Positions 3,471 to 25,167 of a stretch of DNA of 64,000 nt are shown here, in pieces. The number at the start of each line of letters is the position of its first letter. Position 1 is the stretch's first letter. This stretch comes from Chroococcales cyanobacterium (GTDB taxonomy: Bacteria; Cyanobacteriota; Cyanobacteriia; Cyanobacteriales; Nostocaceae): the NCBI GenBank assembly GCA_038249935.1, contig JBBSCU010000001.1:149-64148 (forward strand), given 5' to 3'. The notes beneath the pieces were generated by a model. That model saw only the letters and a list, made by a program, of their open reading frames with translations. It searched no databases and was not told the origin of the DNA. A program made the position numbers and the translations under genes.

Positions 3471-5057
3471 ATGACAGAGACAGTAACTACCACCGCCAGC
3501 CTGAATAAGTTCGAGAAATTCAAAGCAGCCAAAGATGGACTCGCCATCAAGAGCGAGATAGAGAAATTTGCCGCCCTCGGTTGGGAAGCAATGGACGAAA
3601 TAGACCGGGATCATCGACTCAAATGGGTGGGTGTATTTTTTCGCCCAGTTACCCCAGGTAAGTTTATGATGCGGTTGCGGATGCCTAACGGTATTCTTAA
3701 CAGCAGTCAAATGGGTGTTTTAGCGTCAGTGGTGCAGCGTTACGGAGATGAAGGCTGTGCTGATATTACTACGAGACAGAATATTCAATTACGGGGGATC
3801 AGAATTGAAGATTTACCAGATATCTTTAATAGATTTCACGCAGTTGGTTTAACCAGCATTCAGTCAGGGATGGATAATGTTCGCAATATCACAGGCGATC
3901 CCGTGGCGGGGTTGGATGCAGATGAGTTGTATGACACACGAGAGTTAATACAGCAAATTCAAGATATGCTCACCAACAAAGGGGAAGGGAACCCAGAGTT
4001 TAGCAACTTACCACGGAAATTTAATATTGCGATCGCAGGTGGACGAGACAATTCAGTTCACGCTGAAATCAACGATTTAGCTTTTATTCCAGCATTTAAA
4101 AATAGTGCTGAGTCTTTTTGCCACTCAGGACTCATTTTCGGCTTTAACATCCTCGTCGGTGGCTTTTTCTCAGCTAAACGTTGTGAGGCGGCAATTCCTC
4201 TGAATGCTTGGGTGGCTCCAGAAGATGTGGTAGCAGTATGTAGAGCCGTTTTGGAAGTCTTCCGTGATCATGGGCCGCGTGCTAATCGGCAAAAATCCCG
4301 CTTAATGTGGCTAATTGATCAATGGGGTTTAGAAAAGTTTCGAGCCGAAGTAGAAACCCGTTTGGGTAAATCATTATTACCCGCAGCAGCTAAAGACGAA
4401 ATGGACTGGGAAAAACGCGATCACATCGGGCTTTATAAACAAAAACAACCAGGATTGAACTATGTAGGCTTGAACATTCCCGTCGGGCGACTGGATGCCG
4501 AAGATATGTTTGAAATTGCTCGGATAGCAGAAGTTTACGGCAGTGGCGAAATCCGTTTTACAGTTGAGCAAAATATCGTCATCCCCAACATTTCTGACTC
4601 ACGTTTAGCAACATTTTTATCAGAGCCTTTGCTAGAAAGGTTTTCCATTGATCCTGGTTTACTGACGCGATCGCTAGTATCCTGCACAGGCGCACAATTT
4701 TGCAACTTTGCCCTCATCGAAACGAAAAACCGCGCCCTGGCAATGATTAAAGCCTTAGAAGAAGATTTAACCTTCACCAATCCAGTCCGAATTCACTGGA
4801 CAGGTTGCCCCAATTCCTGTGCACAACCACAAGTTGCAGACATCGGCTTGATGGGAACTAAGACTCGTAAAAATGGCAAAACCTTGGAAGGCGTTGACAT
4901 CTATATGGGTGGCAAAGTTGGCAAAGATGCCCATTTAGGAACTTGCGTCATCAAAGGCATACCCTGCGAAGACTTGCAGCCAGTATTGCAAGATTTACTC
5001 ATCAAAAACTTTGGCGCAAAACTCAAGGAAGAAGCGTTAGTAGTTAGTAACTTTTAG
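3471..5057 (+). CDS. nirA: Ferredoxin-nitrite reductase
   Basis: FMMRLRMPNG, TTRQNIQLR, PRKFNIA, siroheme/4Fe-4S cysteines CTGAQFC and GCPNSC. Confidence 0.97.
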   Translation: MTETVTTTASLNKFEKFKAAKDGLAIKSEIEKFAALGWEAMDEIDRDHRLKWVGVFFRPVTPGKFMMRLRMPNGILNSSQMGVLASVVQRYGDEGCADITTRQNIQLRGIRIEDLPDIFNRFHAVGLTSIQSGMDNVRNITGDPVAGLDADELYDTRELIQQIQDMLTNKGEGNPEFSNLPRKFNIAIAGGRDNSVHAEINDLAFIPAFKNSAESFCHSGLIFGFNILVGGFFSAKRCEAAIPLNAWVAPEDVVAVCRAVLEVFRDHGPRANRQKSRLMWLIDQWGLEKFRAEVETRLGKSLLPAAAKDEMDWEKRDHIGLYKQKQPGLNYVGLNIPVGRLDAEDMFEIARIAEVYGSGEIRFTVEQNIVIPNISDSRLATFLSEPLLERFSIDPGLLTRSLVSCTGAQFCNFALIETKNRALAMIKALEEDLTFTNPVRIHWTGCPNSCAQPQVADIGLMGTKTRKNGKTLEGVDIYMGGKVGKDAHLGTCVIKGIPCEDLQPVLQDLLIKNFGAKLKEEALVVSNF

Positions 5058-5075
5058 TGCTTATCAGGGGTATTG

Positions 5076-5207
5076 CAATACCGTTCGGAAAGATCCCCCC
5101 GCCTGTGGCGACCCCCTTAAAAAGGGGGTAAAGAGATATTAGCCCCCCTTTTTAAGGGGGGTTGGGGGGATCTCCAAACACTAAATATCACTAATCCAAG
5201 CGTATTG
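5076..5207. mobile_element. MITE-like element with CAATAC-type ends and a GATCCCCCC/CCCCCTTAAAAAGGGGG palindromic core
   Basis: Left end CAATACCGTTCGG, right end CCAAGCGTATTG; reverse complement is nearly identical to 25011-25139. Confidence 0.7.
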
Positions 5208-5230
5208 CCTTAAAAGCTCAATGTTTAGTC

Positions 5231-5374
5231 TCAAAGGTGCAACTTCCGAGTTCAAAGGCGCAACGTCCGAGTTCAAAGGTGCAACGTCCGAGTTCAAAGG
5301 CTCAACCTCCGAGTTCAAAGGCTCAACTTCCGAGTTCAAAGACTCAACCTCCGAGTTCAAAGGCTCAACCTCCG
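5231..5374 (+). repeat. 21-bp tandem array, about 6.9 copies
   Basis: Unit TCAAAGGYKCAACBTCCGAGT at 5231, 5252, 5273, 5294, 5315, 5336 and a partial at 5357. Confidence 0.95.
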
Positions 5375-5401
5375 TTTTTTATTCAATTAGTAAAGATTAG
5401 A

Positions 5402-6898
5402 ATGCTTAAAAAATTATTTTCATTCAGCGATCGCTACCGCATCTTACATCAGACTTGGTTCGCTTTCTTTCTCACCTTTGTTTGTTGGTTTAACTTTGCT
5501 CCCTTCGCTACAACCATTGGCAAAGAGCTAGATTTAGCGCCTGAGCAAATTAAAACTTTGGGTATCTGTAACCTCGCCCTCACAATTCCCGCACGAATAA
5601 TTATTGGGATGCTTCTGGATCGTTTTGGCCCCAGAATCACCTACTCAATCCTGCTGATGTTTGCGGTTGTTCCATGTTTAGCGACGGCGCTAGCGCAAGA
5701 TTTTAATCAATTAGTCATCAGTCGTTTGCTGATGGGAATTGTCGGCTCTGGGTTTGTTGTCGGTATCCGCATGGTATCCGAATGGTTTCAGCCGAAGGAA
5801 ATGGGTATTGCTCAAGGCATTTATGGCGGCTGGGGCAACTTTGGGGCTTTTGGCGCAGAGTTTGCCTTACCGATGCTTGCAGTTTCTACGAGCTTTTTGG
5901 GTGGTGGTGCTTCTAATTGGCGGTTTGTGATCGCATTTACAGGGATCATTGCAGCCATCTACGGCGTAATTTATTACAACAGTGTCCAAGATACGCCCGC
6001 AGGGAAAGTCTACAAGAAACCTCACAAAAATGGTTCTCTGGAAGTGACCAGTATTAAAAGCTTCTGGGCGATGATTATCTCAAATTTTGGTTTAATTTTC
6101 GCTCTCGGTTTATTAGCTTGGCGCTTGGAACAAAAGAATATTCACTTCTTAACTTTGAGCCAAATGTATTTTACTTGGTTGCTATTAGCAGGATTATTTG
6201 CTTACCAAAGTTATAAAGCTTGGGAAGTAAACCGAGAACTTCTAATTGGCAAAAAAACCTACGCTCCATCAGAACGCTTCCAATTTGGTCAAGTAGCTTT
6301 ACTCGAATTCACTTATGTAACTAACTTTGGCAGTGAATTAGCAGTTGTTTCAATGCTCCCGGCATTTTTTGAAAAAACCTTTGCCTTAGAACACGTTGTA
6401 GCTGGGATGATTGCCGCTACCTATCCCTTCTTAAATTTGATTTCTCGTCCTAGTGGTGGCTTAATTTCTGATAAATTTGGCTCACGTAAATGGACAATGA
6501 CAATACTCAGTGTTGGCATTGGTGTTGGCTATTTGATGGCACATTTTATTAATAGTAACTGGCCGATTCCGCTAGCGATCGCAGTGACAATGTTTGCCGC
6601 TTACTTTGCCCAAGCCGGCTGCGGTGCAACCTACAGCATCGTACCCCTAATTAAGAAAGAAGCCACTGGACAAATTGCCGGGAACGTGGGGGCTTACGGT
6701 AATTTTGGTGCCGTGGTTTACCTGACAATTTTTAGCTTAACTGACGCATCTACACTATTTACCACAATGGGTATAGCAGCTTTAGTTTGCGCTTTTATGT
6801 GTGCCTTCTTCCTCAAAGAACCAAAAGATTCCTTTGCGGCTGCTTATGAAGGTGAGTTACCAGAAATGACAACTCCTATTTTCTTAACTGAAGAATAA
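5402..6898 (+). CDS. nrtP: MFS nitrate/nitrite permease (NarK/NNP family)
   Basis: 12-TM pattern, GMLLDRFGPR, GIYGGWGNFG, GQIAGNVGAYGNFG; lies between nirA and narB; start taken at ATG 5402. Confidence 0.92.
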   Translation: MLKKLFSFSDRYRILHQTWFAFFLTFVCWFNFAPFATTIGKELDLAPEQIKTLGICNLALTIPARIIIGMLLDRFGPRITYSILLMFAVVPCLATALAQDFNQLVISRLLMGIVGSGFVVGIRMVSEWFQPKEMGIAQGIYGGWGNFGAFGAEFALPMLAVSTSFLGGGASNWRFVIAFTGIIAAIYGVIYYNSVQDTPAGKVYKKPHKNGSLEVTSIKSFWAMIISNFGLIFALGLLAWRLEQKNIHFLTLSQMYFTWLLLAGLFAYQSYKAWEVNRELLIGKKTYAPSERFQFGQVALLEFTYVTNFGSELAVVSMLPAFFEKTFALEHVVAGMIAATYPFLNLISRPSGGLISDKFGSRKWTMTILSVGIGVGYLMAHFINSNWPIPLAIAVTMFAAYFAQAGCGATYSIVPLIKKEATGQIAGNVGAYGNFGAVVYLTIFSLTDASTLFTTMGIAALVCAFMCAFFLKEPKDSFAAAYEGELPEMTTPIFLTEE

Positions 6899-6913
6899 CA
6901 ATATGGATTTGTA

Positions 6914-7013
6914 TCACGCAGAGGCGCAGAGTCGCAGAGAGGAAGAGTTGAATCAACGCCCAATTTTCATATCTCTCTTAATCTCTTCTCCGCGCCTCTG
7001 CGTCTCTGCGTGA
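6914..7013. repeat. Inverted-repeat element TCACGCAGAG(G/A)CGCAGAG
   Basis: 18-bp arms at 6914-6931 and 6996-7013 (17/18 match); half copies at 521-540 and 46464-46487. Confidence 0.85.
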
Positions 7014-7031
7014 AATTCTTTATCAAACACC

Positions 7032-9236
7032 ATGACTGAATTTACCAAAACCCTCTGTCCCTACTGTGGTGTTGGTTGTGGACTAGAAGTTTCACCCCCA
7101 GCCCAACAAGGCAAAGCAACTAATCGAGATAGCCAAGGAAATCCAATTTGGCGAGTCCGGGGCGACAAAGCCCATCCATCTAGTCAAGGAATGCTTTGCG
7201 TCAAAGGCGCAACGATCGCGGAATCTTTAGATAAGAATAGATTACATTATCCAATGGTGCGAGACTCTTTGGATCAAGAGTTTCGGCGGGTTAGTTGGGA
7301 TGAAGCTTTTGATCTGATCACCAAGCGCATTCAAACTGTGCGTTTCACCCAAGGGGTAGAAGCCTTATGTATGTATGGTTCCGGTCAGTTTCAAACCGAG
7401 GATTATTATATAGCCCAGAAACTCATGAAAGGCTGTCTGGGTACTAATAATTTTGATGCCAACTCTCGCTTATGTATGTCTAGTGCTGTGTCTGGCTACA
7501 TTCAAAGCTTTGGCGCAGATGGTCCGCCATGTTGTTACGAAGACTTGGAGTTAACTGACTGTGCGTTTTTAATTGGCACCAATACGGCTGAATGTCACCC
7601 CATCGTTTTTAACCGACTGGAAAAATATCACAAAAAGAACCGCAAGGTGAAAATGATTGTGGTTGATCCGCGTCGCACACCAACCGCAGAAGCCGCAGAT
7701 TTGCATTTAGCGATTCGTCCCGGTACAGATATTGATTTGTTAAACGGCATCGCCCATTTGTTGATGCGCTGGAACTATATTGATACCATGTTCATGGACG
7801 ACTGCACCAGCAACTTTCCGGCTTATGCTGAAGTGATTCGCCACTATTCGCCAGAAGTGGTAGCTCGCCAATGTGGAATCACCATTGAAGATTTAGAAAC
7901 AGCAGCTCGCTATTGGGGTAAATCTGAGCGGGTATTGTCTTTGTGGTCAATGGGTGTGAATCAATCTTCAGAAGGGACGGCGAAGGTCAGAACTATCATT
8001 AATCTGCACCTGATGACTGGACAAATTGGCAAACCTGGGGCTGGCCCTTTCTCGCTCACGGGTCAGCCGAACGCGATGGGAGGACGGGAAGCTGGGGGTT
8101 TAGCGCATTTATTACCAGGTTATCGGGTGATCAAAAATCCTCAGCACCGCGCAGAAGTTGAGGAGTTTTGGGGACTCAAGCCGGGACAGATTTCGCCCAA
8201 TCCCGGTTTGACTGCTTGGGACATGATTACTGGGCTGGAAAATGGCGCTGTAGAGTTACTATGGATTGCAGCTACCAACCCAGCTGTAAGTATGCCAGAT
8301 TTGGAGCGGACTAAAAAGGCGTTATTGCGATCGCCTTTTACCATCTACCAAGATGCATATTATCCCACAGAAACCTCAGCCTACGCTCACGTTCTGCTAC
8401 CTGCTGCCCAGTGGGGTGAAAAAACTGGCGTGATGACAAATTCGGAACGGGTGGTAACTTTATGTCAAGCCTTCCGCCAACCGCCAAGAGAAGCTAAAGC
8501 AGATTGGGAAATTTTTGCCGAAGTCGGACGCAGATTAGGTTTTGAGAAAGAATTTGCTTTTAGTAACTCTGCTGAAGTTTATGCTGAGTTTGTCAAACTG
8601 ACTAAAACTCGCCCCTGCGATATGACAGGTATCAGTCATGAGCAATTACAAGCAGAAGGCGCGACTCAATGGCCTCATCCTGAAGAGAGTCCTAATTGTA
8701 CAGACGCGATTAATCGCGTCTCTCCCAAACGCCTCTACACCAATCTCCGCTTCCACACCCCTGACGGACGCGCCCGATTTGGAGCATATTACTCAAAGGG
8801 ATTGGCAGAACCACCAGACCCCGATTATCCTTTTGTGCTTACTAATGGGCGACTTTACGGACATTGGCACACCCAGACACGCACTGGGCGGATTGAAAAA
8901 ATTTGCAAAATGCATCCCGAACCGTTTATCGAAATTCATCCCCGTGATGCTGCTAAGTTAGGTATTGTAGATAATATGTGTGTAGAAGTGCGATCGCGTC
9001 GCGGTAAAGCGAAGTTTCCTGCTAAAGTGACAAAGGCGATCGCGCCCGGTACAGTTTTTGTCCCTATGCATTGGGGTTCGCTGTGGGCAGACAACGCCGA
9101 AGCTAACGCCCTAACTCATCCAGAATCCTGCCCCGATTCGCTGCAACCAGAATTAAAAGCCTGTGCAGTCCAGCTAACACCAATTTCTGTGGAAGTTACA
9201 ATTAAAGACTATCAACTTCAGTCCTCACAATGGTAG
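7032..9236 (+). CDS. narB: Ferredoxin-dependent nitrate reductase (Mo-bisPGD)
   Basis: [14 protein letters not shown] Fe-S motif, [23 protein letters not shown]-terminal molybdopterin dinucleotide-binding domain. Confidence 0.97.
8698..8723. repeat. SDR-type palindrome inserted in frame in narB
   Basis: GTACAGACGCGATTAATCGCGTCTCT encodes TDAINRVS. Confidence 0.9.
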
Positions 9237-9301
9237 ACTGCTAAGTGTAACTTTAAAGAACTTTTAAAACATCCTCTAAATAAGAGTCTGAAATAGTCTT
9301 T

Positions 9302-9333
9302 AATTACGAATCACGAATTACGAATTACGAATT
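9302..9333 (+). repeat. Heptamer STRR (AATTACG)n
   Basis: About 4.5 copies; a shorter copy lies near 44115-44132. Confidence 0.85.
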
Positions 9334-9389
9334 ATTTTAATCCTCTAGATTTATCTATGGGATTTTATTTTAGAATCGGGTGCAGCATT

Positions 9390-9848
9390 ATGAAAAAGCT
9401 ACTGAGGCTCATTATCGGAGCTACCAAAGATGAGAACTTCATGCACGTTGTTGAAAATATAGAGGTGCTAGTTTCTAAGGCTCTATCTATTTTTATGGTA
9501 ATTGTGATTTTGGTAGCGGTCGCAGATTTAGGAGTCTTTCTTGTTAAAGAGTTATTTACAACACCTCATGGTACGTTTAACACAACATTATTCAAGATTT
9601 TCGGTTTATTTTTGAATATTTTAATTGCTTTAGAAATTTTAGAAAATATTACAGGTTATCTGCGAAAACACGTTTTCCAAGTTGAATTAGTTATTGGCAC
9701 TTCTTTAATTGCTGTTGCCAGAAAAATTATTATTCTTGACTTAGAAAAAGTCTCAGGTATTGATATAATTGGTTTAGGAATTGCTATTTTCGCTCTATCA
9801 ATTAGTTATTTGATAATTCGTCTCAGTCATTATAGAGATAGACGTTAA
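9390..9848 (+). CDS. PsiE-family (phosphate-starvation-inducible) membrane protein
   Basis: Four hydrophobic segments, LIALEILENIT, IAVARKIIILD. Confidence 0.8.
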   Translation: MKKLLRLIIGATKDENFMHVVENIEVLVSKALSIFMVIVILVAVADLGVFLVKELFTTPHGTFNTTLFKIFGLFLNILIALEILENITGYLRKHVFQVELVIGTSLIAVARKIIILDLEKVSGIDIIGLGIAIFALSISYLIIRLSHYRDRR

Positions 9849-9889
9849 GTTAGAAATTCCCCAAATAAACGAATTTTCAATAATTCATC

Positions 9890-10342
9890 ATGACAGATTT
9901 CTTTCAATTTGAAGCAGATTTTGTTGATTCTCTACGTTGCATCCCTATGCAAGTACGTTGCAAATTAGATACCTGTGGCATCAAGCTAAAATTGTCTGAT
10001 TGGAATCAAATGACTACAGCAGAGCGTCAAGCTTTAGTCGAATTACCTTGCACTAAAGAAACAGAAATTCAGTCTTACGGCGAGCGTATTCAGCAATTAG
10101 TTGTACAACGCACAGGTATACCAGCGACAAAATTGCCCATCGAGCCTTATCCCGCATGGCTAGACTCTGCCACTCTACCAGCCAATCTCCAGGAAAAAGC
10201 TCAAGAAATAGGTGTAACCCTGACACAGCAAGATTGGACAGCTTTAACGCCCTTACAACGTTTTGCCTTGATTAAACTCAGCCACCCAGGACATGAAAAC
10301 GAAAACTTTAACAGAGCGATCGCAGAATTTAATCTGCTTTAA
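9890..10342 (+). CDS. narM: Nitrate reductase-associated maturation protein
   Basis: FQFEADFVDSLRCIPMQVRCKLDTCGIKLKL..LTPLQRFALIKL; downstream of narB. Confidence 0.88.
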   Translation: MTDFFQFEADFVDSLRCIPMQVRCKLDTCGIKLKLSDWNQMTTAERQALVELPCTKETEIQSYGERIQQLVVQRTGIPATKLPIEPYPAWLDSATLPANLQEKAQEIGVTLTQQDWTALTPLQRFALIKLSHPGHENENFNRAIAEFNLL

Positions 10343-10364
10343 TTAATCAATAACAAAACAAATC

Positions 10365-10405
10365 TGTAAGGTACGTTACACTTTGTTAACTCGCTAGCTT
10401 AAAAT
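10365..10405 (+). promoter_or_regulatory. Putative NtcA-activated promoter upstream of the FHA-PrsW gene
   Basis: TGTA-AGGTACGT-TACA (10365-10380) and TAAAAT at 10400-10405, 20 nt after TAC. Confidence 0.6.
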
Positions 10406-10908
10406 GGTTTATTGCACCACAGTTAGTGCTTTAATATATCGAAATAAAACCTTTTGGTTCATCAATAAATTTGACCGACGCTGTGTTTCTATTATGTACT
10501 GCTTTTATTGATACATAAGTAGCTTATCCAAACCTACAAGTGTGCAAATCCCCAGTAGTTAGTGGTCAATCATTCAGTGGCAAAAATAGCTGAAAACAGA
10601 CCGCCGACAATTATATATTTTTTTAATGTAACTAAATGCAGTAAAAAGTACCATTTTCTGATAAATTGCCGTGCGTTTAATTTGCAGTTAGGATGTCAAG
10701 AGTGCATCACCTAGACAATCTGATTCATACACCTGGAATATTTATTAAGATTAGGTAAAACAATTTTAAATTTTGCATTTGGAATTTTAAATTTCTTAGC
10801 AGTAAGTGAAGCTATAGTGGATTTAGCAATGCTGCTGTTGATGTGGCTAAGGTTAGTTCCTGCTGCCAAATTATTTGAATAATTAGTTTAGAAACGCACT
10901 TCTTATCG

Positions 10909-12291
10909 ATGACAGGCAAAAACGCAAGACATAATGCATTTCTACAGCTAGTGTCTGGTAATGGAGCAGCTATTGGATCAGAATCTCGCTACTCGCTGCC
11001 CCCCAGTAAAGAGATGGTAATTGGACGCGACCCCAGCTGCCAAGTTGTCTTAGATGCCATGACGTACCGGATGGTATCTCGTCGTCATGCGGTAGTTCGT
11101 CCCCTCTCTTTATCCCCAGATAGCAAATTCAGCTGGGTGCTTTGTGATTTGAATAGTGCTAATGGTACTTATTTGAATGGACAACGCTTGTATGAATGTC
11201 AAGAATTGCATCCAGGCGATCGCATTTCTCTAGGTGCTGATGGGCCGCAATACGTTTTTGAGTATGAGTTTACCTCAGTCACTCCGGCAACGACAGTTAA
11301 CCAAATTACACCACTGCCTTCCGCAACAAACTACCACAACCATACGCAATTAAAGCGGCCAGATTCCGTTAGCTTCACCCAGCTTTTTCCAATTATTTCC
11401 ACTGGTAAAGATTTAACTCGTAAAGCTTACCTTATACCGGGAATACTGACCGTAATATTCGTAGTCCTAATGTTTGCTACAGTCGGTCGGCCTCAAGCTA
11501 ATCAAGTGATTGTTGCAACTTATATCGCCTTCGCTGCCTACTATTTTGTTTACCAACTTTGCGGTAAACAGAAGCCTTGGTGGGTGTTAATGGCTGCATC
11601 ACTAAGTACGCCGCTGATTTTGCTCAGTCCAGTGTTGAATCTATTTATCTTCGTGTTTCGCGGCATCTTGCCTGGAAACTTACCCTCACCCCAAGAATCT
11701 ATTACCTTTACAGAGTTGCTGGTGCGGATGTTTTTTGGCGCTGGATTAATGGAGGAATTACTCAAAGCCTTGCCTGTATTAGGAGCCTTTGCCATCGGTA
11801 GAATGTTGTCTTCACCTTGGCGGGAACGCATAGGCGTTTGGGAACCTCTAGATGGTATTCTGCTGGGAACGGCTTCGGCTGTAGGTTTCACTCTATTGGA
11901 AACTCTTGGTCAATATGTGCCAGATATCACTCAAAATGTTACGCAACAGGTGGGTATAGGCGCTGCTGGACAACTAGCGGGTTTACAACTGCTAATTCCG
12001 CGAATTTTAGGCTCTGTAGCTGGACACATGGCTTATAGTGGCTACCTGGGCTATTTTATCGGGCTGGCTGTCCTCAAACCCAGTAGAAGTTGGCAAATTC
12101 TCTCTATTGGTTATCTTAGTGCCTCTGCGCTCCACGCTCTGTGGAATGCTACAGGATCAATCAATGCCTTGCTGTTGGTAGTTGTTGGGGTGTTGTCTTA
12201 CGCCTTTTTGATGGCAGCAATTCTCAAGGCACGGGCGCTGTCACCGACGCGATCACAAAATTTTGCTACCCGATTTCTGGAACACAGATGA
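10909..12291 (+). CDS. FHA domain + PrsW-family intramembrane glutamic protease
   Basis: FHA motifs IGRDP, SRRHA, SANGTYLNG; PrsW motifs MEELLK, GFTLLET, GHMAY, LHALWN. Confidence 0.9.
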   Translation: MTGKNARHNAFLQLVSGNGAAIGSESRYSLPPSKEMVIGRDPSCQVVLDAMTYRMVSRRHAVVRPLSLSPDSKFSWVLCDLNSANGTYLNGQRLYECQELHPGDRISLGADGPQYVFEYEFTSVTPATTVNQITPLPSATNYHNHTQLKRPDSVSFTQLFPIISTGKDLTRKAYLIPGILTVIFVVLMFATVGRPQANQVIVATYIAFAAYYFVYQLCGKQKPWWVLMAASLSTPLILLSPVLNLFIFVFRGILPGNLPSPQESITFTELLVRMFFGAGLMEELLKALPVLGAFAIGRMLSSPWRERIGVWEPLDGILLGTASAVGFTLLETLGQYVPDITQNVTQQVGIGAAGQLAGLQLLIPRILGSVAGHMAYSGYLGYFIGLAVLKPSRSWQILSIGYLSASALHALWNATGSINALLLVVVGVLSYAFLMAAILKARALSPTRSQNFATRFLEHR

Positions 12292-12503: not shown

Positions 12504-13133
12504 TTATGGTTCAGGCTGAGAGTTATTGAGTTGAGTAAAAGCATAGTAAGCGATCGCTAAAGTAACCTTTGCTTGCTCTACTTCTGATAAAGCTGTCCAC
12601 TCACTATTTTTAAGATTACTGAGCGCAGATGCCGCGTTTTGCGATTCGCTACTTCGCATAGCGTAAGCAAAAGGACGAGCTAAGACTAAAAGATCCTCTG
12701 TTCCCCAAGTAGGTAGTACTGTCTGAACGCACTCAACCAGTTGTTCACCCATTGATTGGCGAGAAGAAAATATCTCAGCAGCTTTGGTAGCGATCGCATT
12801 GAGCAATAATTGAGGGACACAAGCAGAGAAAGTAGTACGTAATGTTTCTTGAAGATTAAACACTACTGCCTGTTGTGAATTGCGATCGTAGCTTGACCAA
12901 AGTGTGTCTAGATGGCTATAAAAATCTTGCGATCGCGTCGTTAATTCTGACTCTAAGAAATCTGGCATTACGAACTGTTGTTCTAGTTCGTGAAAATATG
13001 CTTCTGATTCATTATCAACTGGATTCCAGGGATAAGTAGCATCGTCTGGTTCTAGTAACGCTTCTAAAAACTCTAAATCTAGTTGAGACGGCAAAGAACA
13101 GAAAGCGTCTGAGTCGTTAATTTTTTTAGCCAT
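12504..13133 (-). CDS. Acidic helical hypothetical protein, possibly PatU3-like
   Basis: 209-aa ORF co-oriented downstream of the CHAT gene; YPWNP motif and helical C-half; the PatU3 likeness is from memory only. Confidence 0.75.
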   Translation of the reverse strand: MAKKINDSDAFCSLPSQLDLEFLEALLEPDDATYPWNPVDNESEAYFHELEQQFVMPDFLESELTTRSQDFYSHLDTLWSSYDRNSQQAVVFNLQETLRTTFSACVPQLLLNAIATKAAEIFSSRQSMGEQLVECVQTVLPTWGTEDLLVLARPFAYAMRSSESQNAASALSNLKNSEWTALSEVEQAKVTLAIAYYAFTQLNNSQPEP

Positions 13134-13372
13134 TTTTTCTTAACTCCCGATTAGTTGGTGATATTGACAGCTACAATTCCTAAGAAGAGATTTCCGCAAA
13201 AACAGTTGATTTTTCTCTAGTAAAAATAGATTGTAAAAGCTGATGCTCAACATCAAAATGCATTTATCAAGAAGGGGAAAGGTTTCGGTGTGAGCGCTTA
13301 GTCGAACGGTAAAAAGCTATGCAGGTATTGTGTCTGACCTAATTCATCCCCTTTTTTTATGCAATAACTCTG

Positions 13373-14947
13373 CTACGAGTCTTCAATAATAAACTCCCAA
13401 ATATCACCTCTAGCACTTCCAAACTTTAACTGCATTCCCGATTTCAAGGGGACTTCCTCTCGGAGGATTTGTTGCCAACCATTAGGACTTAAAAACCAGG
13501 TTGTCCCGTAGGTGGAAAAATCTTGCAAGTAATAAGTTCGCATCAGTGTAGCATCAGTAAGAGTATTGCGGCAGAAGATTTCGGCGTGGCGTTTAGAAAC
13601 AGCTGGTTCTGGGATGACAATATCATTGTCTTTTGTGCGACCGATGCGGGTGACTCCATAACGCAATAACCAGGTTTTAGCTGAGGAGAGCGATCGCAAA
13701 GAGGCAGTAAAGGGAGAACTTATATCAGGAATGGCTGTATCTGGGAGTTCCGTAATTCCTTCATCAACAGCCTTGATCAGTTCGCCATTAAAATCTGGAT
13801 GCAGATAAAGAACAGGCAAAGTCCAAGCAGGTTGATTAAATTTATACAGTGTTAATAACTCTTGCCTAGCCAGTGCTACGGCTTCATCAATTGGTTTGTG
13901 CGATCGCAAAGCTTCGGTAAAGGCTTGAATAAAACTGTGGCTTTCGTGGTCAGCGATTTTATCGCGCATCCCCAAAACCGCAGGTACACCATGACGAATC
14001 AGCACTTCTGCCAAACTGCTAGCAGCTATAGCTTGATGATTGCTAGTAGCTGGTTGTGCGCCCCAACAGGCGTTAAAAACCGCTAATTTCACACCTGTAC
14101 GGGTCAATACTTGCGCCAATTCTATCCCATTCAGGGCGCATTCTGGTTGCAAAAACAGTAAGCCGCCGTCTGGGTCTGGCAAACCATGTCCAGCATAAAA
14201 GAAAACATTGTATGCTTTGGTTTCTAGTTCTTGAATCAACTCCTGGGGAGTTGGTTGTATGAGTTGATTCACTATACAGGGTGCATATCTTTGGGAATGA
14301 CCGCCGACCGGCGGATCTGCAAGAGTTTGCTGTAGGATAGCGGCTTCTTGTTTTAGTTGCAGGTTTTCATCATGACCTAAGACCAGCAGGATACTTAAAG
14401 CCTGGTCAGTTCGCAAATAGGGCAAGGGGTCAACTTCAGTGCTGGTGCGACTAAATAGCAAATCTGAGGAGAGAGACATAGCCGATTGGCCAGGCTCACG
14501 CTGCATAATTTCCCAAGGGAAAGCGATGAGATCCGGGTCACGAATTTCTAGTCGAAAGCGCAAACGTGTATGCTGACCCATAGCAATACCACGACTGCGT
14601 TCTAGACTACCGAGAATTTGTCCGTCGAATACCCAGCGCCATAAATTCATTCCTAAATATTGCATCAGACGACTGCTGTAGGGGCTAGTGGTCTGAGATG
14701 AAGGGGGTGAAATCGAATCTATAGAGAATGGGTTAGTCTTTTGAGATGTTAAGTTTGGGGAAATATCTAGGTGACTATGACCAGCGAACATCTGCTGCCA
14801 TTCTTGCCAGACTTGAGTAAGTTCAACAGGCCATACACAGTCACGTAAAACATAGCCACTGGGATAGGGAGCCTTGACCACCCAAATGGCGAAGTTGTCA
14901 GTGCCAGTGTTTAAAAGACGGGCGATCGCCAAATTCAGGGATGGCAT
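13373..14947 (-). CDS. HetF-like CHAT (caspase-fold) protease with C-terminal FHA domain
   Basis: LRFRLEI..FPWEIM, FFYAGHG (His codon 14186-14188), VFNACWGA (Cys codon 14066-14068), AWTLPVLY; FHA IGRT..SKRHA. Confidence 0.88.
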   Translation of the reverse strand: MPSLNLAIARLLNTGTDNFAIWVVKAPYPSGYVLRDCVWPVELTQVWQEWQQMFAGHSHLDISPNLTSQKTNPFSIDSISPPSSQTTSPYSSRLMQYLGMNLWRWVFDGQILGSLERSRGIAMGQHTRLRFRLEIRDPDLIAFPWEIMQREPGQSAMSLSSDLLFSRTSTEVDPLPYLRTDQALSILLVLGHDENLQLKQEAAILQQTLADPPVGGHSQRYAPCIVNQLIQPTPQELIQELETKAYNVFFYAGHGLPDPDGGLLFLQPECALNGIELAQVLTRTGVKLAVFNACWGAQPATSNHQAIAASSLAEVLIRHGVPAVLGMRDKIADHESHSFIQAFTEALRSHKPIDEAVALARQELLTLYKFNQPAWTLPVLYLHPDFNGELIKAVDEGITELPDTAIPDISSPFTASLRSLSSAKTWLLRYGVTRIGRTKDNDIVIPEPAVSKRHAEIFCRNTLTDATLMRTYYLQDFSTYGTTWFLSPNGWQQILREEVPLKSGMQLKFGSARGDIWEFIIEDS

Positions 14948-15096: not shown

Positions 15097-17373
15097 CTAA
15101 GTTGGACTGGTGTTAGGTGGTTGAGTAACTGGCGGTTGCGTGACAACTCTACATGGACTTGGTACATCTGATTGTAAAACAGAGACTTTAAAACGGTTCA
15201 TCTGAGAAAATTTAATTGATACCTTTTCCTCTGGCTTCAATGCAGGTTTTAACTTAGATGGTGCTTGCGAAGTTACTGGATTTGTGCTGTTTGTTGGAGT
15301 TGGTGTAACTTTATTGTTACAGACTCGCACATATACTGAAAAATCCCCAGAAGCAGGTTTGGGATTTGGTTTTGTGTCGAGAACTTCTAAAAAACTTTCC
15401 GGGGGAAGCAATTTGTTGTTTCCCAAGGATATTTCGTTGTTGGTTTTAATTACCCAACCACGAGAAAGGTTAGCAAGCGATCGCGGTGCAGGTATCGCTT
15501 CGATGGTAGGGGTTGGAGTTGCTGTGGGATTGGACAAAATTGGAGAGGAACGTGATGGCGATCGCAGTTGCTTAACGAAGAATCCTAAACTGCCTGCTGC
15601 GATCACAAATATTAACGGGACTATCCAGTGTAGCGGTAAACTCGAACTTTTAACTGGCAGATTTTCTGGAAGGACTTGAGTTTTGTGGTTTGGGCGATCT
15701 AAAAGTGTCGGATCTGCCGCTTTGGACGCTAAATCAACAGTTTTGGCAGAATAACCCTCTGGAATGACTGCTTTGATGGTGATCTCTGGTTCCCAGTATT
15801 GGACTTGATAGTGTACTAAAGCAACGGTGACATTATCGTGTCCATTTTTAGTATTAGCAATTTCTACTAATCTATCCGCAACATTTGTTATATTTGTTTC
15901 TCCAAGCAGAATCGGCAATATTTCTGTTTCCCAGTACTCTTCTACCCGATCAAAATCAGTCAAACCATCGGATGTGAGCAGAAATACGGCATCTTCGTCG
16001 AGCATAAACCGTCCAGATGTCGGATGCAATGAGCTACTTGGCCCCATTCCCAAAGCTTGAACCAGAGAACCAGCAGCACTTTGTTGTACAGCCTCGCGGT
16101 AAATAGCATAGCCTAGCCGCACCTCACGGGAAGCAACATCATCGTCGAGGGTAACTTGATAACAGCCGTGGCGTGTAATCCAATAGGCACGACTATCGCC
16201 GACGTGGGTAATGTACATTTCGTGGGCAACAGGCAATGCCATTACTAACGTTGTACCCATGCGTTGTCGCCCTTGACGATTTTCACTGTCATTGCGCTGA
16301 CTAATTTTGTCATTGGCAATTGCCACGGCGTTTTCTAGGTCATTCAGCAGCAGTGAAGGGTCTATGTGGTCGTAGGGAACTTTTGTTAATTGCTGTACCT
16401 GTTGCTGGATTGTTTCAATGGCTAAATTTGAGGCGACATTGCCGCCCTCGTGTCCACCGATGCCATCACAGACAATTGCTAAGGCTGTTGGCTGGGGTGG
16501 TTTGCTGACCAGAGTGCCACTGGGGGGGCTACAGGCATCTTCGTTACGTTGGCGACTTGGCCCAGTATCAGTTTTGGTGATAATTTTGATCGTGGGTGTT
16601 TGCGATCGCCCTAATTGTGCCAGTCCGTGATCTAAAACTGTGATTAATTGTTCGGATGAGTGAATCTTTCCCTGAATTAAGGAAAGGCTAACGTGTTCAA
16701 CAAATTCAGCTACGGCTGGTTTGGCATCACTGAGCAACTGCTGCCAAAATTCACCTAATTGGGGTAATTCTGGCAATGTTGCAGCGTCGAAACGCAATTC
16801 CAACAAACGTACTAGTGATCCTTCTATCCGTAATACATAGGAGTCAAGTAAGCTAGAGGCGACACCTTCACTCGCAAGAGGTTGCCACAGATGAGCTATT
16901 TGCCATAACCAATTGAGTTGGCGCATCGATGTAGCATCACGCCAAGCGGTAGTTAACTCGCTGCCCAAATGCACTTGTTGGATAGTGTCATCTACTAATA
17001 GGGGCGGTTTTTCTAAAAGTAATATTTCTTGCTGGGCGGGATCGTCAGCTAGAAAAAGTACTCCATATACCTGTGGTACGTGTAAGCGGTAGGGAATGAG
17101 TCTCAGGTAAGCTCTGGGGATATGTAAATTATCTAACTCAGGCGTTAGCGTTAATAAACCAGGCTTCGTATCTAAAAGAACAAATTTATCAATAACTAAA
17201 TAGCGATCGGCTAATATTTGTCCAGGGCTACCCACACTCGGACTATCTACCACAGCCCAGAGATAATTTTTGGGTAAGGGCGTGGAACATCGCTGGCAAA
17301 ACTTGTGGGTCAGTGGGTTGGCAGCCTGACAATTTTCATTGGGACAGTGGAGCGTTGCCGCATCATTTTCCAT
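15097..17373 (-). CDS. prpJ: Membrane PP2C Ser/Thr phosphatase with Zn ribbon and kinase-like N-terminal region (PrpJ-like)
   Basis: CPNENC/CQRC; PP2C motifs RNED, CDGIGGHEGG, LTSDGLTD, GHDNVT; one TM; Pro/Thr-rich tail; symbol from architecture and recalled synteny with ndhM. Confidence 0.75.
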   Translation of the reverse strand: MENDAATLHCPNENCQAANPLTHKFCQRCSTPLPKNYLWAVVDSPSVGSPGQILADRYLVIDKFVLLDTKPGLLTLTPELDNLHIPRAYLRLIPYRLHVPQVYGVLFLADDPAQQEILLLEKPPLLVDDTIQQVHLGSELTTAWRDATSMRQLNWLWQIAHLWQPLASEGVASSLLDSYVLRIEGSLVRLLELRFDAATLPELPQLGEFWQQLLSDAKPAVAEFVEHVSLSLIQGKIHSSEQLITVLDHGLAQLGRSQTPTIKIITKTDTGPSRQRNEDACSPPSGTLVSKPPQPTALAIVCDGIGGHEGGNVASNLAIETIQQQVQQLTKVPYDHIDPSLLLNDLENAVAIANDKISQRNDSENRQGRQRMGTTLVMALPVAHEMYITHVGDSRAYWITRHGCYQVTLDDDVASREVRLGYAIYREAVQQSAAGSLVQALGMGPSSSLHPTSGRFMLDEDAVFLLTSDGLTDFDRVEEYWETEILPILLGETNITNVADRLVEIANTKNGHDNVTVALVHYQVQYWEPEITIKAVIPEGYSAKTVDLASKAADPTLLDRPNHKTQVLPENLPVKSSSLPLHWIVPLIFVIAAGSLGFFVKQLRSPSRSSPILSNPTATPTPTIEAIPAPRSLANLSRGWVIKTNNEISLGNNKLLPPESFLEVLDTKPNPKPASGDFSVYVRVCNNKVTPTPTNSTNPVTSQAPSKLKPALKPEEKVSIKFSQMNRFKVSVLQSDVPSPCRVVTQPPVTQPPNTSPT

Positions 17374-18012
17374 AGTTTTCGCACCGATCAGCGATTAGCA
17401 ATTTCTTTAATAACATTAGTAGGGACAATCTAGACCGCTCATCTTTCTGAAACTTGACATACCCAGACTTTAGATGATGATTTTAGCTGGCGGATATCAG
17501 CAGGTGCTAATACTTAACTTATCTAAAGAATACGCTCCTAAGTCAACCCTACAGCCTCATCATAGCTTCTATTGCTCTGTGACTCTTCATTGCCAAGCAA
17601 CTAACTCCAACCCTGTTACCAAAGCATAACCCAAGCATAACTCCGCTATTTGCTTTTGCTGAATTACTCCATCATCAAGAGGCAGATTAATGTTGGTGTT
17701 TGTTTAGTTTATGTTTATTTAGTTTATAAGTAGGATAGCAATAATTAACTTTAATTAAGAATTAAGATAATTAAATATACTTTTGGCAAAAGTACCTGAC
17801 GAATGATGTGGTTTTCAAAATCTCTTCAGAATTGCTGAGTAACCAAAAGAGCGAAACAGGAGTACTGATTCAGCACTCAGCATTGTTTCGGTAATCTCGT
17901 TTCCAGGTTCTAAGAAGGAAATGCTCTTTGGGGAGGCAGCAAAGCCTCACAGAGGGCATTCCCAGTCAGTACTAATATGAAAATAGCTGGAAGTTGACAC
18001 AGAAGGATTCAG

Positions 18013-21884: not shown

Positions 21885-24857
21885 TCATGGTTTGTTAGTT
21901 CTTGGCGTATTGCTTAATTTGGCTCTTAAATCTGCCCATTTGACCCCTGCTAGGCTGGGCAAGACAACATGAGCGGCTCCAACTCGTTCATTGGGGCCGA
22001 GTCCTACTGCCCACATCCCCGCAGCTAGAGCTGCGTCAATTCCGGCTGCGGCATCTTCTACAACCACAGATTGCTCTGGTTCGAGTCCTAGCTGCTTGGC
22101 TGCGTACAGAAATAGGTCGGGTGCTGGCTTTGGTAGCTGTACACTATAACCGTCAGCGATCGCATCTACTTTATCAGCAATACCCAATAGTTCGATCACT
22201 GTCTGGGCATTTTTGCTAGCTGAACCAATACCAATTTTAATCCCAGCTTGCCGCAATTCATCCAAGAGGGCGATCGCTCCTGGTAACAAATTCTTGGGTG
22301 TCATATTTTGGATCAAGTCAACGTAGTACCCGTTTTTACGCTCCATCATCTCCTGGATTTGTGCTTCCGAATACGGTCTATCGCCGATAATTAGCATCAG
22401 AGATTCACGACGAGATACACCCCGTAGCGCTTCGTTAGCTTGCCGATTAAAAGGTATCCCCTCTTCATCTGCTAGCTTTTTCCAAGCTAGATAGTGAACT
22501 TCTGCTGTATCTGTTAGCACACCATCTAGATCGAAGATGAATCCTTGGATGTTGGGCATTGGGTAGTGAGTACTTATACTGAGCGTTCGCGTAGCGTCTC
22601 GTAGAGAAGTATTGGTTATTCCTCCTGTCTCAACTCCCGGACGCAAATCGAAGTCGTGCCATTTTCCGCGCCAGTGTAGTTTAAACTTCAGACGCGTCCA
22701 GCCCGGTGGTAGGTGAGGATTGGCTACGGGGCCATTTTCGGTTATTTGGATGCCGCCGAAGCCGAAAATTACAGCTTGCCAAATGCCACCAGCACTAGCG
22801 CCGTGAATTCCATCGCTGGTGTTATTTCGGTTATCTTCAAGATCAACCATTAACGCCCGCATAAACAGTTCGTAAGCTTGAGTTGATTTGCCTAAATCTG
22901 AAGCTAAAATCGCATGAACTGCCGGGCCAAGGGACGAACCATAGGTAATATCGGTGCGGGGTGCGTAATAGTCCCAGTTTGCTTGCAATGCTTTTTCGTT
23001 GTAGGGAAAATCTGCCGATTCCCGCATTAAATATAGGAGCATTAATACATCTGGCTGCTTGAGTACTTGATATTTGTTAGTTTTCTCAATACCTAATATC
23101 GGTTGCATGGAGCGATCGCGTGGTTCATAGTCTGCTAAATTGATATCTTCCAATTGAAAAAATCCCTCGATCTGCTCAATTAGTTCTGTTGATGGGTCAT
23201 AGAGAAACAATATTTTGGCGATGATATCTTGCCAATGCGATCGCTCTTCTGGAGTGAGTTTTAGTTTATCTTCTAGTTCGGTAGCTCGTTCGGGGAATTT
23301 GTCAGCCAACCAATCGTAAACTGCGATCGCTTTCTCTAGATGCCATTGCGCCATGCGGTTTGTAAAGGCGTTGTTGTGGACGAATTCATGGTATTCATCC
23401 GCTCCGATGACTCCCCGAATTTCATACTTTTGGCTCTCAGGATTGAATTCGACCCGGCTACCCCAAAAGATGGCTGCATCTAAGATCACCTCTGCGCCAC
23501 GCTTTTGCATCCAGTCATCATCACCAGTAGCTTGCCAATAGTTCCAAATGGCGTAAGGGATATCTGCATTGATATGAATTTCGCGATCGCGGCACCAAAT
23601 TCGCACGTCTTCACCATAAAAATCACTGCCGATAGCCCAACGTGGTGTAACTTCATCTCCGGTAATCGCACTTTCCCAGGAAAACATTGCCCCTTTATAA
23701 CCATAATGGGCTGCTTTGCGTCTAGCTCCATTCAAAGTGTGCCAACGGTAGCTGAGTAAGTTACGAGCGATCGCTGGTTGGGTAAACAGAAACATCGGCT
23801 GCATAAAAATTTCTGTATCCCAAAAGATATGGCCGCGATAGCCAAACCCCGAAAGAGTTTTCGCCGGAATGCTCACCCTGTCATCATGCCGTGGAGCGGC
23901 AATCAGCAGTTGAAATAAATTGTAACGAACCGCAAAAGCCGCTGTGCTATCCCCTTCAATCAGGATGTCACTTTGTTGCCAAACCTCATCCCATGCCTGT
24001 TCATTGGCTTTTAGTAATGTTACGTAGTCTGGCAGGTGCGCGAGTTTTTCTTGAGCTGCTGGGACTGGTGTTTCAATCTCCCGCGAGGTAAAAACTGTCA
24101 AGAGTTTTTCTATTGTTACGGTCTGTTCCGCTTTAGCTAAGAAGGTCGTACTCAAAGTCGGATAACCAGGTGCGGTACTGACTTGCAAAGATGCTTCAAT
24201 GCCTAATATTGTCACCTTAGCTGCCATACCGAGTTCAATTCGGGAGTTGCGGGTGCGGCGTTGTAACCAGATTCCTTGGTCAGTCTTGCCCTGGTCTAAT
24301 CCTTCCCAGTGATTGAAACCTTGATTTTCTGGATAGCCGTTGATACTAGCTTGAATTTCGATTAACCCATCAAAATCTACTGGCGTTAAATAGCAGCGTA
24401 GCGCCAATACGTGCGGATCTGCAAGACTAGCAAAGCGTTCAAAGCTGATGTCTATGGTGTTCCCACTGGGAGAGCGCCAACGCAAAGAGCGGCTGAGAAG
24501 TCCTTGGCGCAAATCAAGCTGCCGATTGTAGCGCAATATCTCACCTTGATCGAGGCGGAAGCGATCGCCATTCACAATCACTACCAAGGGCAACCAGTCA
24601 GGGCAATTTACCAGTTCAGTGTACACCACCGGCACATCATCGTAGACACCGTGGATAAAAGTAGCTGGCATTGCATGAGGATATCCTTCTTCAAAACTGC
24701 CTCTTGTTCCCAGGTATCCATTACCAATAGTAAAAACGGTTTCCTTGGAGTGCAATTGTTCAGAGTCAAACTGGGTTTCGGTTAATATCCAGTCTGTGTA
24801 AACAAAATGGGGAGTGGGGAGTGGGGAGTGGGGAGTAGTGAGTGGCGCATTGGGCAT
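21885..24857 (-). CDS. GH65 alpha-glucoside phosphorylase fused to beta-phosphoglucomutase (HAD)
   Basis: GNGYLGTRG, YRGHIFWDTE, GADEYHE, KQPDV, GSSLGP; C-terminal FDLDGVLTDTAE, KPAPDLF, VEDAAAG; exact start uncertain because the first codons are STRR-derived. Confidence 0.92.
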   Translation of the reverse strand: MPNAPLTTPHSPLPTPHFVYTDWILTETQFDSEQLHSKETVFTIGNGYLGTRGSFEEGYPHAMPATFIHGVYDDVPVVYTELVNCPDWLPLVVIVNGDRFRLDQGEILRYNRQLDLRQGLLSRSLRWRSPSGNTIDISFERFASLADPHVLALRCYLTPVDFDGLIEIQASINGYPENQGFNHWEGLDQGKTDQGIWLQRRTRNSRIELGMAAKVTILGIEASLQVSTAPGYPTLSTTFLAKAEQTVTIEKLLTVFTSREIETPVPAAQEKLAHLPDYVTLLKANEQAWDEVWQQSDILIEGDSTAAFAVRYNLFQLLIAAPRHDDRVSIPAKTLSGFGYRGHIFWDTEIFMQPMFLFTQPAIARNLLSYRWHTLNGARRKAAHYGYKGAMFSWESAITGDEVTPRWAIGSDFYGEDVRIWCRDREIHINADIPYAIWNYWQATGDDDWMQKRGAEVILDAAIFWGSRVEFNPESQKYEIRGVIGADEYHEFVHNNAFTNRMAQWHLEKAIAVYDWLADKFPERATELEDKLKLTPEERSHWQDIIAKILFLYDPSTELIEQIEGFFQLEDINLADYEPRDRSMQPILGIEKTNKYQVLKQPDVLMLLYLMRESADFPYNEKALQANWDYYAPRTDITYGSSLGPAVHAILASDLGKSTQAYELFMRALMVDLEDNRNNTSDGIHGASAGGIWQAVIFGFGGIQITENGPVANPHLPPGWTRLKFKLHWRGKWHDFDLRPGVETGGITNTSLRDATRTLSISTHYPMPNIQGFIFDLDGVLTDTAEVHYLAWKKLADEEGIPFNRQANEALRGVSRRESLMLIIGDRPYSEAQIQEMMERKNGYYVDLIQNMTPKNLLPGAIALLDELRQAGIKIGIGSASKNAQTVIELLGIADKVDAIADGYSVQLPKPAPDLFLYAAKQLGLEPEQSVVVEDAAAGIDAALAAGMWAVGLGPNERVGAAHVVLPSLAGVKWADLRAKLSNTPRTNKP
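22583..22607. repeat. SDR-type element in the GH65/PGM interdomain linker
   Basis: GCGTTCGCGTAGCGTCTCGTAGAGA; a related intergenic copy lies at 21025-21043. Confidence 0.65.
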
Positions 24858-24876
24858 AGGGATTAGGGATTAGGGA
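24808..24876 (+). repeat. Heptamer STRRs (TGGGGAG)4 and (TAGGGAT)3
   Basis: Read directly; overlaps the GH65 start region. Confidence 0.9.
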
Positions 24877-25004
24877 CTTTGAGCTAGATGAACGGAGTTC
24901 TGAGGTGGATGAACGAGTCTTTGAGAGAGATGAACGGAGTTCTGAGGTGGATGAACGAGTCTTTGAGAGAGATAAACGGAGTTCTGAGGTGGATGAATGA
25001 GTCT
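24877..25004 (+). repeat. 42-bp (2x21) tandem array, about 3 copies
   Basis: GATGAACGGAGTTCTGAGGTG-GATGAACGAGTCTTTGAGAGA at 24887, 24929 and 24971 (partial). Confidence 0.93.
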
Positions 25005-25010
25005 CTAATT

Positions 25011-25139
25011 CAATACGCTTGGGTTATTTTAGTGTTCGGAGATCCCCCCAACCCCCTTAAAAAGGGGGGCTAATATGTCTTTGTACCCCCTTTTTAAGGG
25101 GGTCGCCGAAGGCGGGGGGATCTTAACCCAAGCGTAGTC
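25011..25139. mobile_element. MITE-like element, same family as 5076-5207
   Basis: CAATACGCTTGGGTTA ... TAACCCAAGCGTAG ends and the same palindromic core. Confidence 0.72.
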
Positions 25140-25167
25140 TCTAATTCTCCTTGTCCCCCTTGTCCCC

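Follow-up and report, generated by a model that had tools for sequence, protein, structure and literature searches.

The window analysed here, a 64,000-nucleotide stretch of a Chroococcales cyanobacterium (Nostocaceae in GTDB; contig JBBSCU010000001.1, positions 149 to 64,148), encodes at 12504..13133 on the (-) strand a 209-amino-acid (aa) all-helical protein of an unnamed cyanobacterial family, here called X. Profile comparisons indicate that X is a stand-alone copy of the helical core from the middle of PatU and PatU3, and the gene directly upstream of it encodes a HetF-type CHAT-FHA cysteine protease. We consider it somewhat probable that X is a PatU-core paralogue acting as the dedicated substrate in a phospho-regulated pair analogous to HetF-PatU3, its cleavage being predicted from the alignment. 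PatU3, which in cyanobacteria inhibits both cell division and the differentiation of heterocysts, has no recognised domain that we know of.

PatU3 is described as a 258-aa probable anti-sigma factor of sigma-HetZ, to which it binds (PMC13342950), and it also binds the divisome protein ZipS (PMC12288457). HetF, with C295 as the catalytic Cys, cleaves PatU3 at R117|S118, inside T114-N-Y-R-S-P-E-T121, and PatU3 truncated at about residue 170 suppresses the hetF phenotype (PMC9457339). The hetZ and patU genes have been reported mainly in filamentous forms (PMC12669612).

In the list of open reading frames (ORFs) X starts with ATG and carries, in order, YPWNP at residue 34, VPQLLL at 106, MGEQLVECVQTVLP at 128-141, AMRS at 158-161 and EQAKVTLAIA at 186-195. 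A sequence-only reading of this stretch had noted the same ORF and motif order, and both stand. The motifs are conserved rather than chance occurrences. Across an alignment of 136 diverse family members (A5), Y34, P35, W36, P107, L132, A152, R153, P154, R160, W179 and L182 are each conserved in at least 90% of sequences, and the conserved set for the family as a whole comprises YPW, P107, L132, D147-L148, A152-R153-P154, R160, W179, L182 and A195. The YPWNP motif (residues 34-38; 13020..13034, (-)) lies in the flexible N-terminal part and is the counterpart of the FPWE that is invariant in PatU. An AlphaFold2 model of X built from the 136-sequence alignment (predicted local distance difference test score, pLDDT, 87.4; predicted template-modelling score, pTM, 0.68) has eight helices, at residues 17-27, 41-53, 58-102, 108-121, 128-139, 145-158, 165-172 and 184-205. 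A Foldseek search of the PDB with the model identified no informative fold; the top match was the C-terminal domain of filovirus VP30 (expect value, E, 0.3-0.6; template-modelling score ~0.3), and the best E for the 136-sequence model was 0.6.

No match to X was found in Pfam, NCBIfam or PADLOC, and no significant match among PDB sequences. Its close homologues number 435; all 120 among the matches listed are annotated 'hypothetical', and the taxon-named ones among the matches listed are Nostocales. When a hidden Markov model (HMM) of a Nostocales alignment (A1) was searched exhaustively against 1.84 billion representatives, 298 clusters (50% identity) had E <= 1e-3, 242 of them E <= 1e-10; most are 190-230 aa long. 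Named members came from Spirulina, Spirulinaceae, Allocoleopsis and one Chroococcales metagenome-assembled genome (MAG), and the family is cyanobacteria-wide. A sub-group with an N-terminal extension ('ME.KAMCS...') was considered as a candidate for PatU itself and rejected, as it clusters inside the X family; one of its members, P0223, has a CHAT-FHA gene upstream. A string 'NYRSP' in P0231, tried as a mark of PatU3, was also rejected, being at the wrong position.

The PatU comparator was taken from a Spirulinaceae contig (L086), on which a gene for a 380-aa HetZ (Pfam PF28104) is followed 4 bp downstream by a gene for a 333-aa protein without a Pfam match. We took the latter as PatU because it lies directly downstream of the PF28104 HetZ and has homologues with the UniRef name 'PatU'; the pair is the hetZ-patU arrangement and the 333-aa protein is a genuine PatU. 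A homology search with it recovered 187 proteins of about 260-380 aa (257-383 aa for the 120 listed), and the two homologues named 'PatU' in UniRef are P0334 and P0356 (Lusitaniella; Allocoleopsis PCC 7113). The alignment of 42 PatU sequences (A4) gave the consensus PLFPWETE ... LPV..PE.VLAQLL ... GAKLV.AV..LFP ... P.R(S) ... QQM.LSLLAAREI. Residues P96, P97, F99, P100, W101 and E102 are invariant in it, and about 100 more conserved residues lie beyond the core (..ERQWQT..G..LRV..LP.GG...YPGYLSVE..PL.F). The PatU3 motif strings that the sequence-only reading had given are present in this consensus and were essentially accurate; their placement in a C-terminal domain of PatU3 was wrong, the region being the central helical part of PatU/PatU3.

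PatU3-length forms in the set (P0412, P0352) start MQDRF/VQNRF, like the published MQERF of PatU3 (Alr0101), whose start MQERFKP follows from the S1 Table primers of PMC7377430. Two reverse primers in that table, 2-patU3-R and patU3(MBP)-2, differ by one base (..tgttgcggg.. versus ..tgttgccggg..), and the last residues of PatU3 are by those primers either ..INPAT or ..SLIPAT (PMC7377430). No structure of PatU3 was found in the PDB by sequence and Foldseek searches, nor was a HetZ chain present among the 50 PDB matches of an E. coli RpoE query. A two-motif degenerate PatU3 pattern had 0 matches in metagenomes and a pattern made from LGAKLV..VE..FP had 0 in viral contigs. A degenerate TNYRSPET pattern matched 3 loci in viral contigs and 70 in metagenomes, all by chance and none of them PatU, and a patU3 primer 20-mer gave a single chance match among genome contigs, to a Fibrobacter MAG.

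The sequence-only reading would have dropped the relation between X and PatU3 had neither a profile nor a structural match been significant; the profile comparison, made with the PatU family, did give a match. Comparison of A5 with A4 by hhalign gave a score of 42.1 (P = E = 2.8e-5; probability 73.9%) over 100 columns, aligning X residues 101-204 (12522..12833, (-)) with Spirulinaceae PatU 135-226, roughly PatU3 60-151. Gaps are almost absent from this alignment, which has just two single-residue indels that compensate each other. Column shuffles (n = 30) reached at most 26.8 (mean 15.5), shuffles of seven-column blocks (n = 30) at most 20.2, and the reversed PatU alignment 29.1, so that the real score exceeded all 61 controls by 13-15 units. 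Searching 120 PatU sequences with the A5 HMM gave a median of 9.6 and a maximum of 22.8 bits, against a maximum of 7.4 bits in 2400 shuffled sequences and 4.0 for reversed ones; more than half of the 120 outscored the best of the 2400 shuffles, and the four best PatU domains fell on the same profile region, positions 94-196. Conversely, the PatU HMM scored up to 28.2 bits on X-family sequences. The best HMM-sequence matches between the two families (18-28 bits) were in the same register as hhalign, and a shallow Nostocales profile of X produced a 37-column match to a single PatU (E 0.099). Read as a single pre-specified comparison, the HMM scores are highly non-random. We regard true homology between the core of X and that of PatU as very probable from these profile data, and collinearity of the N-terminal [FY]PW blocks as suggestive.

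The proposal that X is a PatU3 paralogue therefore stood at the level of a distant domain, the helical core of about 100 residues, and did not extend beyond it. X is a distant domain-level paralogue and not a PatU orthologue, because its gene neighbourhood differs, the N- and C-terminal parts of PatU are missing, it forms a separate family, and that family coexists with hetZ-patU. X is not encoded downstream of hetZ, the place of PatU/PatU3 genes in hetZ-patU and hetZ-patU5-patU3 clusters; its upstream neighbour is the CHAT-FHA gene and its downstream neighbour an FHA-PrsW gene, in the window and in relatives. It lacks the PatU C-terminal domain, ending about 10 residues past the last helix of the core. 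Among 150 listed X-family representatives none is PatU-like in length or motifs, and the absence of PatU from the listed HMM matches of the family is explained by database-scale E values of 4.9-100. An X-family gene and hetZ-patU are both present on contig L086, 5-6 kb apart. There the X gene (10001-10612) is near hetZ-patU (15539-17687), and xisH/xisI and a transposase fragment occupy the interval; this is the sole such context among those examined, and the proximity may be a coincidence.

The same alignment places an Arg-small pair of X on the PatU3 cleavage column. X residues G129, P141, A152, R160 and S161 are paired by hhalign with Spirulinaceae PatU G159, P171, A181, R190 and S191, and in the PatU3-length forms the R160 column is R118 (P0412, ..PAR|SGS) and R119 (P0352, ..PNR|S). 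The mapped R117|S118 of Alr0101 differs from these positions by no more than one or two residues, and we took the positions as corresponding. Arg occupies the column in 131 of 136 X-family members and 30 of 42 PatU sequences; the residue after it is G, S, D or N in the X family and S, G or A in PatU. Clan-CD (caspase-fold) proteases need a fixed P1 residue, which the near-invariant Arg would supply. In the model of X, helix 145-158 leads straight into a loop that contains R160-S161 and is the part of the domain modelled with the lowest confidence. The predicted cleavage site of X is thus after R160, with R160-S161 (P1 Arg, small P1'; 12651..12656, (-)) as the scissile pair. An earlier candidate for the equivalent of the cleavage site, R67-S68 ('TTRSQ'), had been guessed from protein lengths and is superseded by the profile alignment.

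The gene for the putative protease lies at 13373..14947 on the (-) strand. It encodes a 524-aa protein with a CHAT domain at residues 137-369 (Pfam 2.5e-19) and a C-terminal FHA domain at 433-510 (Pfam 9.7e-14), predicted to be a cytoplasmic HetF-like protease from Pfam and NCBIfam matches. The catalytic dyad is intact, with His254 in AGHG and Cys294 in NACWG. Against the NCBIfam HetF model (NF045509; 836 positions) the protein scored 146.9 bits (E 7.8e-43), aligning with positions 72-388 and falling well short of the full-length cut-off of 1200; an FHA domain stands where HetF has its C-terminal half. It is a HetF-like CHAT paralogue, judging from these matches, and not HetF. The earlier description of a HetF-like protease directly upstream of X was thereby borne out by a same-strand CHAT-FHA gene with a HetF-model match. 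FHA domains usually carry S-x-N-G-T. In the CHAT-FHA protein the corresponding stretch (residues 478-482, within the FHA domain) reads S-T-Y-G-T, and Tyr apparently replaces the peptide-contacting Asn. The tetrapeptide FPWE, the one invariant in PatU (PLFPWETE), also occurs at residues 143-146 of the CHAT-FHA protein (..IAFPWEIM..) and resembles the YPWN of X; it may be a trivial property of the CHAT domain or a shared docking element.

Two further genes complete the cluster. The first gene of the same-strand trio (15097..17373, (-)) encodes a 758-aa Ser/Thr phosphatase with a zinc ribbon and a PP2C domain, its C-terminal part rich in Pro and Thr (Pfam PP2C_2 2.9e-10; NCBIfam serine/threonine phosphatase 1.6e-74). 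Convergent with X, at 10909..12291 on the (+) strand, is a gene for a 460-aa protein with FHA and PrsW intramembrane protease domains (Pfam PrsW-protease 6.3e-37, FHA 6.1e-18). Gene order was compared in 11 contexts of divergent X-family members: the window, L002 (Cylindrospermum), L004 (Stigonema), L005 (Spirulina), L079, L080, L081, L083, L084, L085 and L086. A CHAT-FHA gene was directly upstream on the same strand in 6 of the 11 (window, L002, L004, L079, L081 and L085), including contexts whose X members are only ~35-40% identical to the X of the window. FHA-PrsW was convergent downstream of X in 5 (window, L002, L004, L080 and L085), and PP2C was upstream of CHAT-FHA in 4 (window, L002, L004 and L081). 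L080 retained the convergent FHA-PrsW only; L083 had a Ser/Thr kinase directly upstream of the X gene, L084 a small FHA protein 1 kb from it, and L005 and L086 none of the module genes. From the gene order in these contexts, the X family travels with readers and erasers of Ser/Thr phosphorylation and with two proteases, the link to the HetF-like one being the tightest. A second zinc-ribbon PP2C gene, with an FHA-Ser/Thr-kinase gene, was observed 2 kb downstream of the X gene in L081 (10814-14201); this kinase and the Ser/Thr kinase of L083 (5488-6717) are candidate module kinases, and none is present in the window cluster. A defence-system reading of the cluster was rejected, as PADLOC gave no match for any of its four proteins.

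The protease gene and X are separated by a 239-bp spacer (13134..13372, (-)) with one promoter-like site (13237-13209); matches to the promoter consensus in the spacer were no more numerous than in shuffles. X is covered by RNA sequencing (RNA-seq) contigs from related strains (88-99% identity); two runs each yielded one contig that spans both X and the protease gene, and in one of these runs it reaches PP2C as well. Strand information is missing from the contigs, DNA may have contributed to them, and one extends over the convergent gene; the X locus is expressed in relatives, and the contigs are compatible with co-transcription of X with the protease gene. In these contigs parts of the spacers between X and CHAT-FHA (13205-13356) and between CHAT-FHA and PP2C (15200-15310) are replaced by unrelated sequence of other lengths; the spacers are therefore far less conserved than the genes.

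The window has a GC content of 41-45% and genes including nirA, nrtP, narB and NdhM, which are typical of a Nostoc-type cyanobacterium. At 3471-10342 it carries an nrtP-type nitrate-assimilation cluster (nirA, an MFS nitrate/nitrite permease and narB), followed by a PsiE-family protein and a 'nitrate reductase-associated' protein (PF09655), and the PP2C/CHAT-FHA/X/FHA-PrsW cluster adjoins the nitrate cluster in Nostoc, Cylindrospermum and Stigonema. Just upstream of nrtP, at 5231-5374, is a 21-nt tandem repeat of 6.9 copies with 91% matches (unit TCAAAGGCTCAACCTCCGAGT). The GTG-started ORF 5237..6898 reads the repeat as PSSKAQ-type heptapeptides, and the true nrtP start is therefore probably downstream of the array. 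Further along, at 21885-27579, a 990-aa fusion of GH65 glycoside phosphorylase and HAD phosphatase is encoded beside, and on the same strand as, an 803-aa sucrose synthase.

In the mechanism that we propose for the pair, X would be a substrate dedicated to the CHAT-FHA cysteine protease of the adjacent upstream gene. Cleavage would follow the near-invariant Arg160, in the loop past helix 145-158, as HetF cuts PatU3 after Arg117, and would destroy or release X, which would otherwise bind and hold a partner. Ser/Thr phosphorylation would time the cut, a control suggested by the FHA domains on the CHAT and PrsW proteases and by the PP2C gene upstream. Cleavage, its site, phospho-control and an inhibitory role of X are all predictions here. 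The suggestion in the sequence-only reading that X is the candidate substrate of its neighbour gains support because CHAT-FHA is upstream in 6 of 11 contexts and R160 falls on the cleavage-site arginine of PatU. X was also considered as the ligand of the FHA domains; this was rejected, as X has no conserved Thr.

A number of observations weigh against the proposed pair. Pairwise BLASTP of X against PatU was not significant (E 3.3), the HMM matches were not significant at database scale (Z = 1.8e9), and the hhalign probability was 74% and not >95%. The [FY]PW sub-profile does align the two motifs, with a score (11.5) that lies within those of shuffles (maximum 22.7). The comparison was made with PatU orthologues and not with the Alr0101 sequence of PCC 7120. 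Five of the 11 contexts (L005, L080, L083, L084 and L086) have no adjacent CHAT gene, and the known pair is itself not organised by adjacency, as hetF and patU3 are not neighbours. The lack of a conserved Thr in X means that the FHA domains probably read phospho-threonine on another component. The C-terminal domain missing from X is probably needed for inhibition by PatU3, and X may act differently; truncated PatU3 (~170) is inactive (PMC9457339), and X therefore need not inhibit division or HetZ. Finally, the strongly conserved ARP.AYAMR segment may serve for binding and not for cleavage.

This last point leads to a reading that we consider improbable, in which the homology holds and the roles differ: X would be a PatU-core homologue acting as a partner of the protease (an inhibitor, activator, adaptor or chaperone), ARP.AYAMR would bind, and the protease would cut something else. 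Conserved gene order shows a functional link and not its direction, and the X family retains ARP.AYAMR much more strictly (R153 and P154 in 134 of 136 members) than PatU retains the counterpart segment. Such conservation exceeds the need of a cleavage loop, and the motif is largely helical in the model (helix 145-158). The requirement of clan CD for a fixed P1 residue, on the other hand, fits the near-invariant R160 with a small residue next to it, and HetF is the only characterised protease of its CHAT subgroup. Moreover, the sole characterised PatU-core protein, PatU3, is a substrate of HetF, cut at the aligned Arg (PMC9457339). Unlikely, and more so than a partner role, is that the likeness of X and PatU reflects chance or convergence of helical proteins, X belonging to a Ser/Thr-phosphorylation module (PP2C, FHA and kinases) without any HetF-PatU3 parallel. 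The weak BLASTP, hhalign and database-scale HMM values and the non-significant [FY]PW block would be expected of such a resemblance, as would the setting of X in L083 and L084, where a kinase or a small FHA protein is close by and a CHAT gene is missing. It has to contend with a score 13-15 units over all 61 controls, with more than half of 120 PatU sequences beating 2400 shuffles, and with 100 collinear, nearly ungapped columns in which the Arg-small pair falls on the experimentally mapped cleavage column. Homology would predict a genomic tie to a HetF-type protease, and such a tie is seen independently.

Less likely still, X could itself be an anti-sigma-like protein or division inhibitor that binds HetZ, HetZ' or ZipS/Ftn6, the adjacency of the protease gene reflecting shared regulation only. 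PatU3 binds sigma-HetZ and is likely its anti-sigma factor (PMC13342950), it binds the divisome protein ZipS (PMC12288457), and the PatU core is common to X. Yet X is without the C-terminal domain that, from the truncation suppressor, is apparently needed for PatU3 activity (PMC9457339), and a sigma or HetZ gene is not a regular neighbour of X in the contexts examined. The X family is also found in Chroococcales- and Spirulina-labelled lineages, whereas hetZ/patU are mainly filamentous (PMC12669612). Such a function is compatible with X being a protease substrate and does not exclude it.

Set beside PatU and PatU3, X has the same helical core of ~100 residues with the blocks [LV]P..[LV]L, G..[LM]V..V...[LF]P and LA...., the further collinear blocks R-[SG] and [EQ]Q..LSL[LA][AI]A, the N-terminal [FY]PW motif, and an Arg-small pair at the HetF-cleavage position of PatU3. 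It is shorter (209 aa versus 258 for PatU3 and 330-380 for PatU), being without the N-terminal PatU5-equivalent part and the ~100-aa C-terminal domain of PatU, and has an extra long helix (58-102); the likeness is seen by profile methods only. The families are separate, both occurring in one genome (L086), and X reaches lineages labelled non-filamentous. The HetF-PatU3 pathway (PMC9457339) and the module here have in common a HetF-type CHAT domain with a His/Cys dyad (C294 here, C295 in HetF) and the pairing of the protease with a PatU-core protein bearing Arg at the aligned P1, in our case a predicted pairing. HetF has transmembrane and TPR parts; the protease here is predicted to be soluble and has an FHA domain instead. 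The protease and putative substrate genes are adjacent here, whereas hetF and patU3 lie apart, and PP2C and FHA-PrsW genes are attached, unlike in HetF-PatU3. The mycobacterial FhaA/FhaB-PstP-PknB modules are similar in co-locating PP2C with FHA proteins, and kinases are near the X gene in some genomes; here, however, FHA is fused to two proteases (CHAT and PrsW), and the window cluster is without a kinase. Judged from remote homology and synteny only, the HetF-PatU3-like module would differ from the known pathway in architecture, regulation and distribution. A limited full-text literature search, which is not proof of absence, found nothing on a CHAT-FHA gene pair in cyanobacteria or on the X family, and the passages on PatU3 and HetF that were consulted name no relative of PatU3 beyond the hetZ cluster.

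The coordination of cell division with heterocyst differentiation in Anabaena depends centrally on PatU3 and HetF, and these results would bear on the field of heterocysts and cell division. On the profile evidence the helical core of PatU3, including the protease-sensitive loop, exists as a free-standing family beside a HetF-type protease across cyanobacteria. A PatU-core domain is thereby defined, and PatU3 gains a structural hypothesis through the AlphaFold2 model of its paralogue (pLDDT 87). A second phospho-regulated protease-substrate pair is predicted, testable with the assays published for HetF-PatU3, and there is probably a sister system, wider in distribution and so far undescribed, to the known HetF-PatU3 proteolytic switch. 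More tentatively, and we think this possible rather than probable, the HetF-PatU3 switch may be a specialised offshoot of an older cyanobacteria-wide module. In such a module a soluble, FHA-bearing HetF-type protease under PP2C/kinase control would cleave a minimal PatU-core protein at a conserved Arg, thereby regulating cell division or the growth of the envelope, also in cyanobacteria that form no heterocysts and possibly in unicellular ones. This would offer an evolutionary origin for the heterocyst-specific switch.

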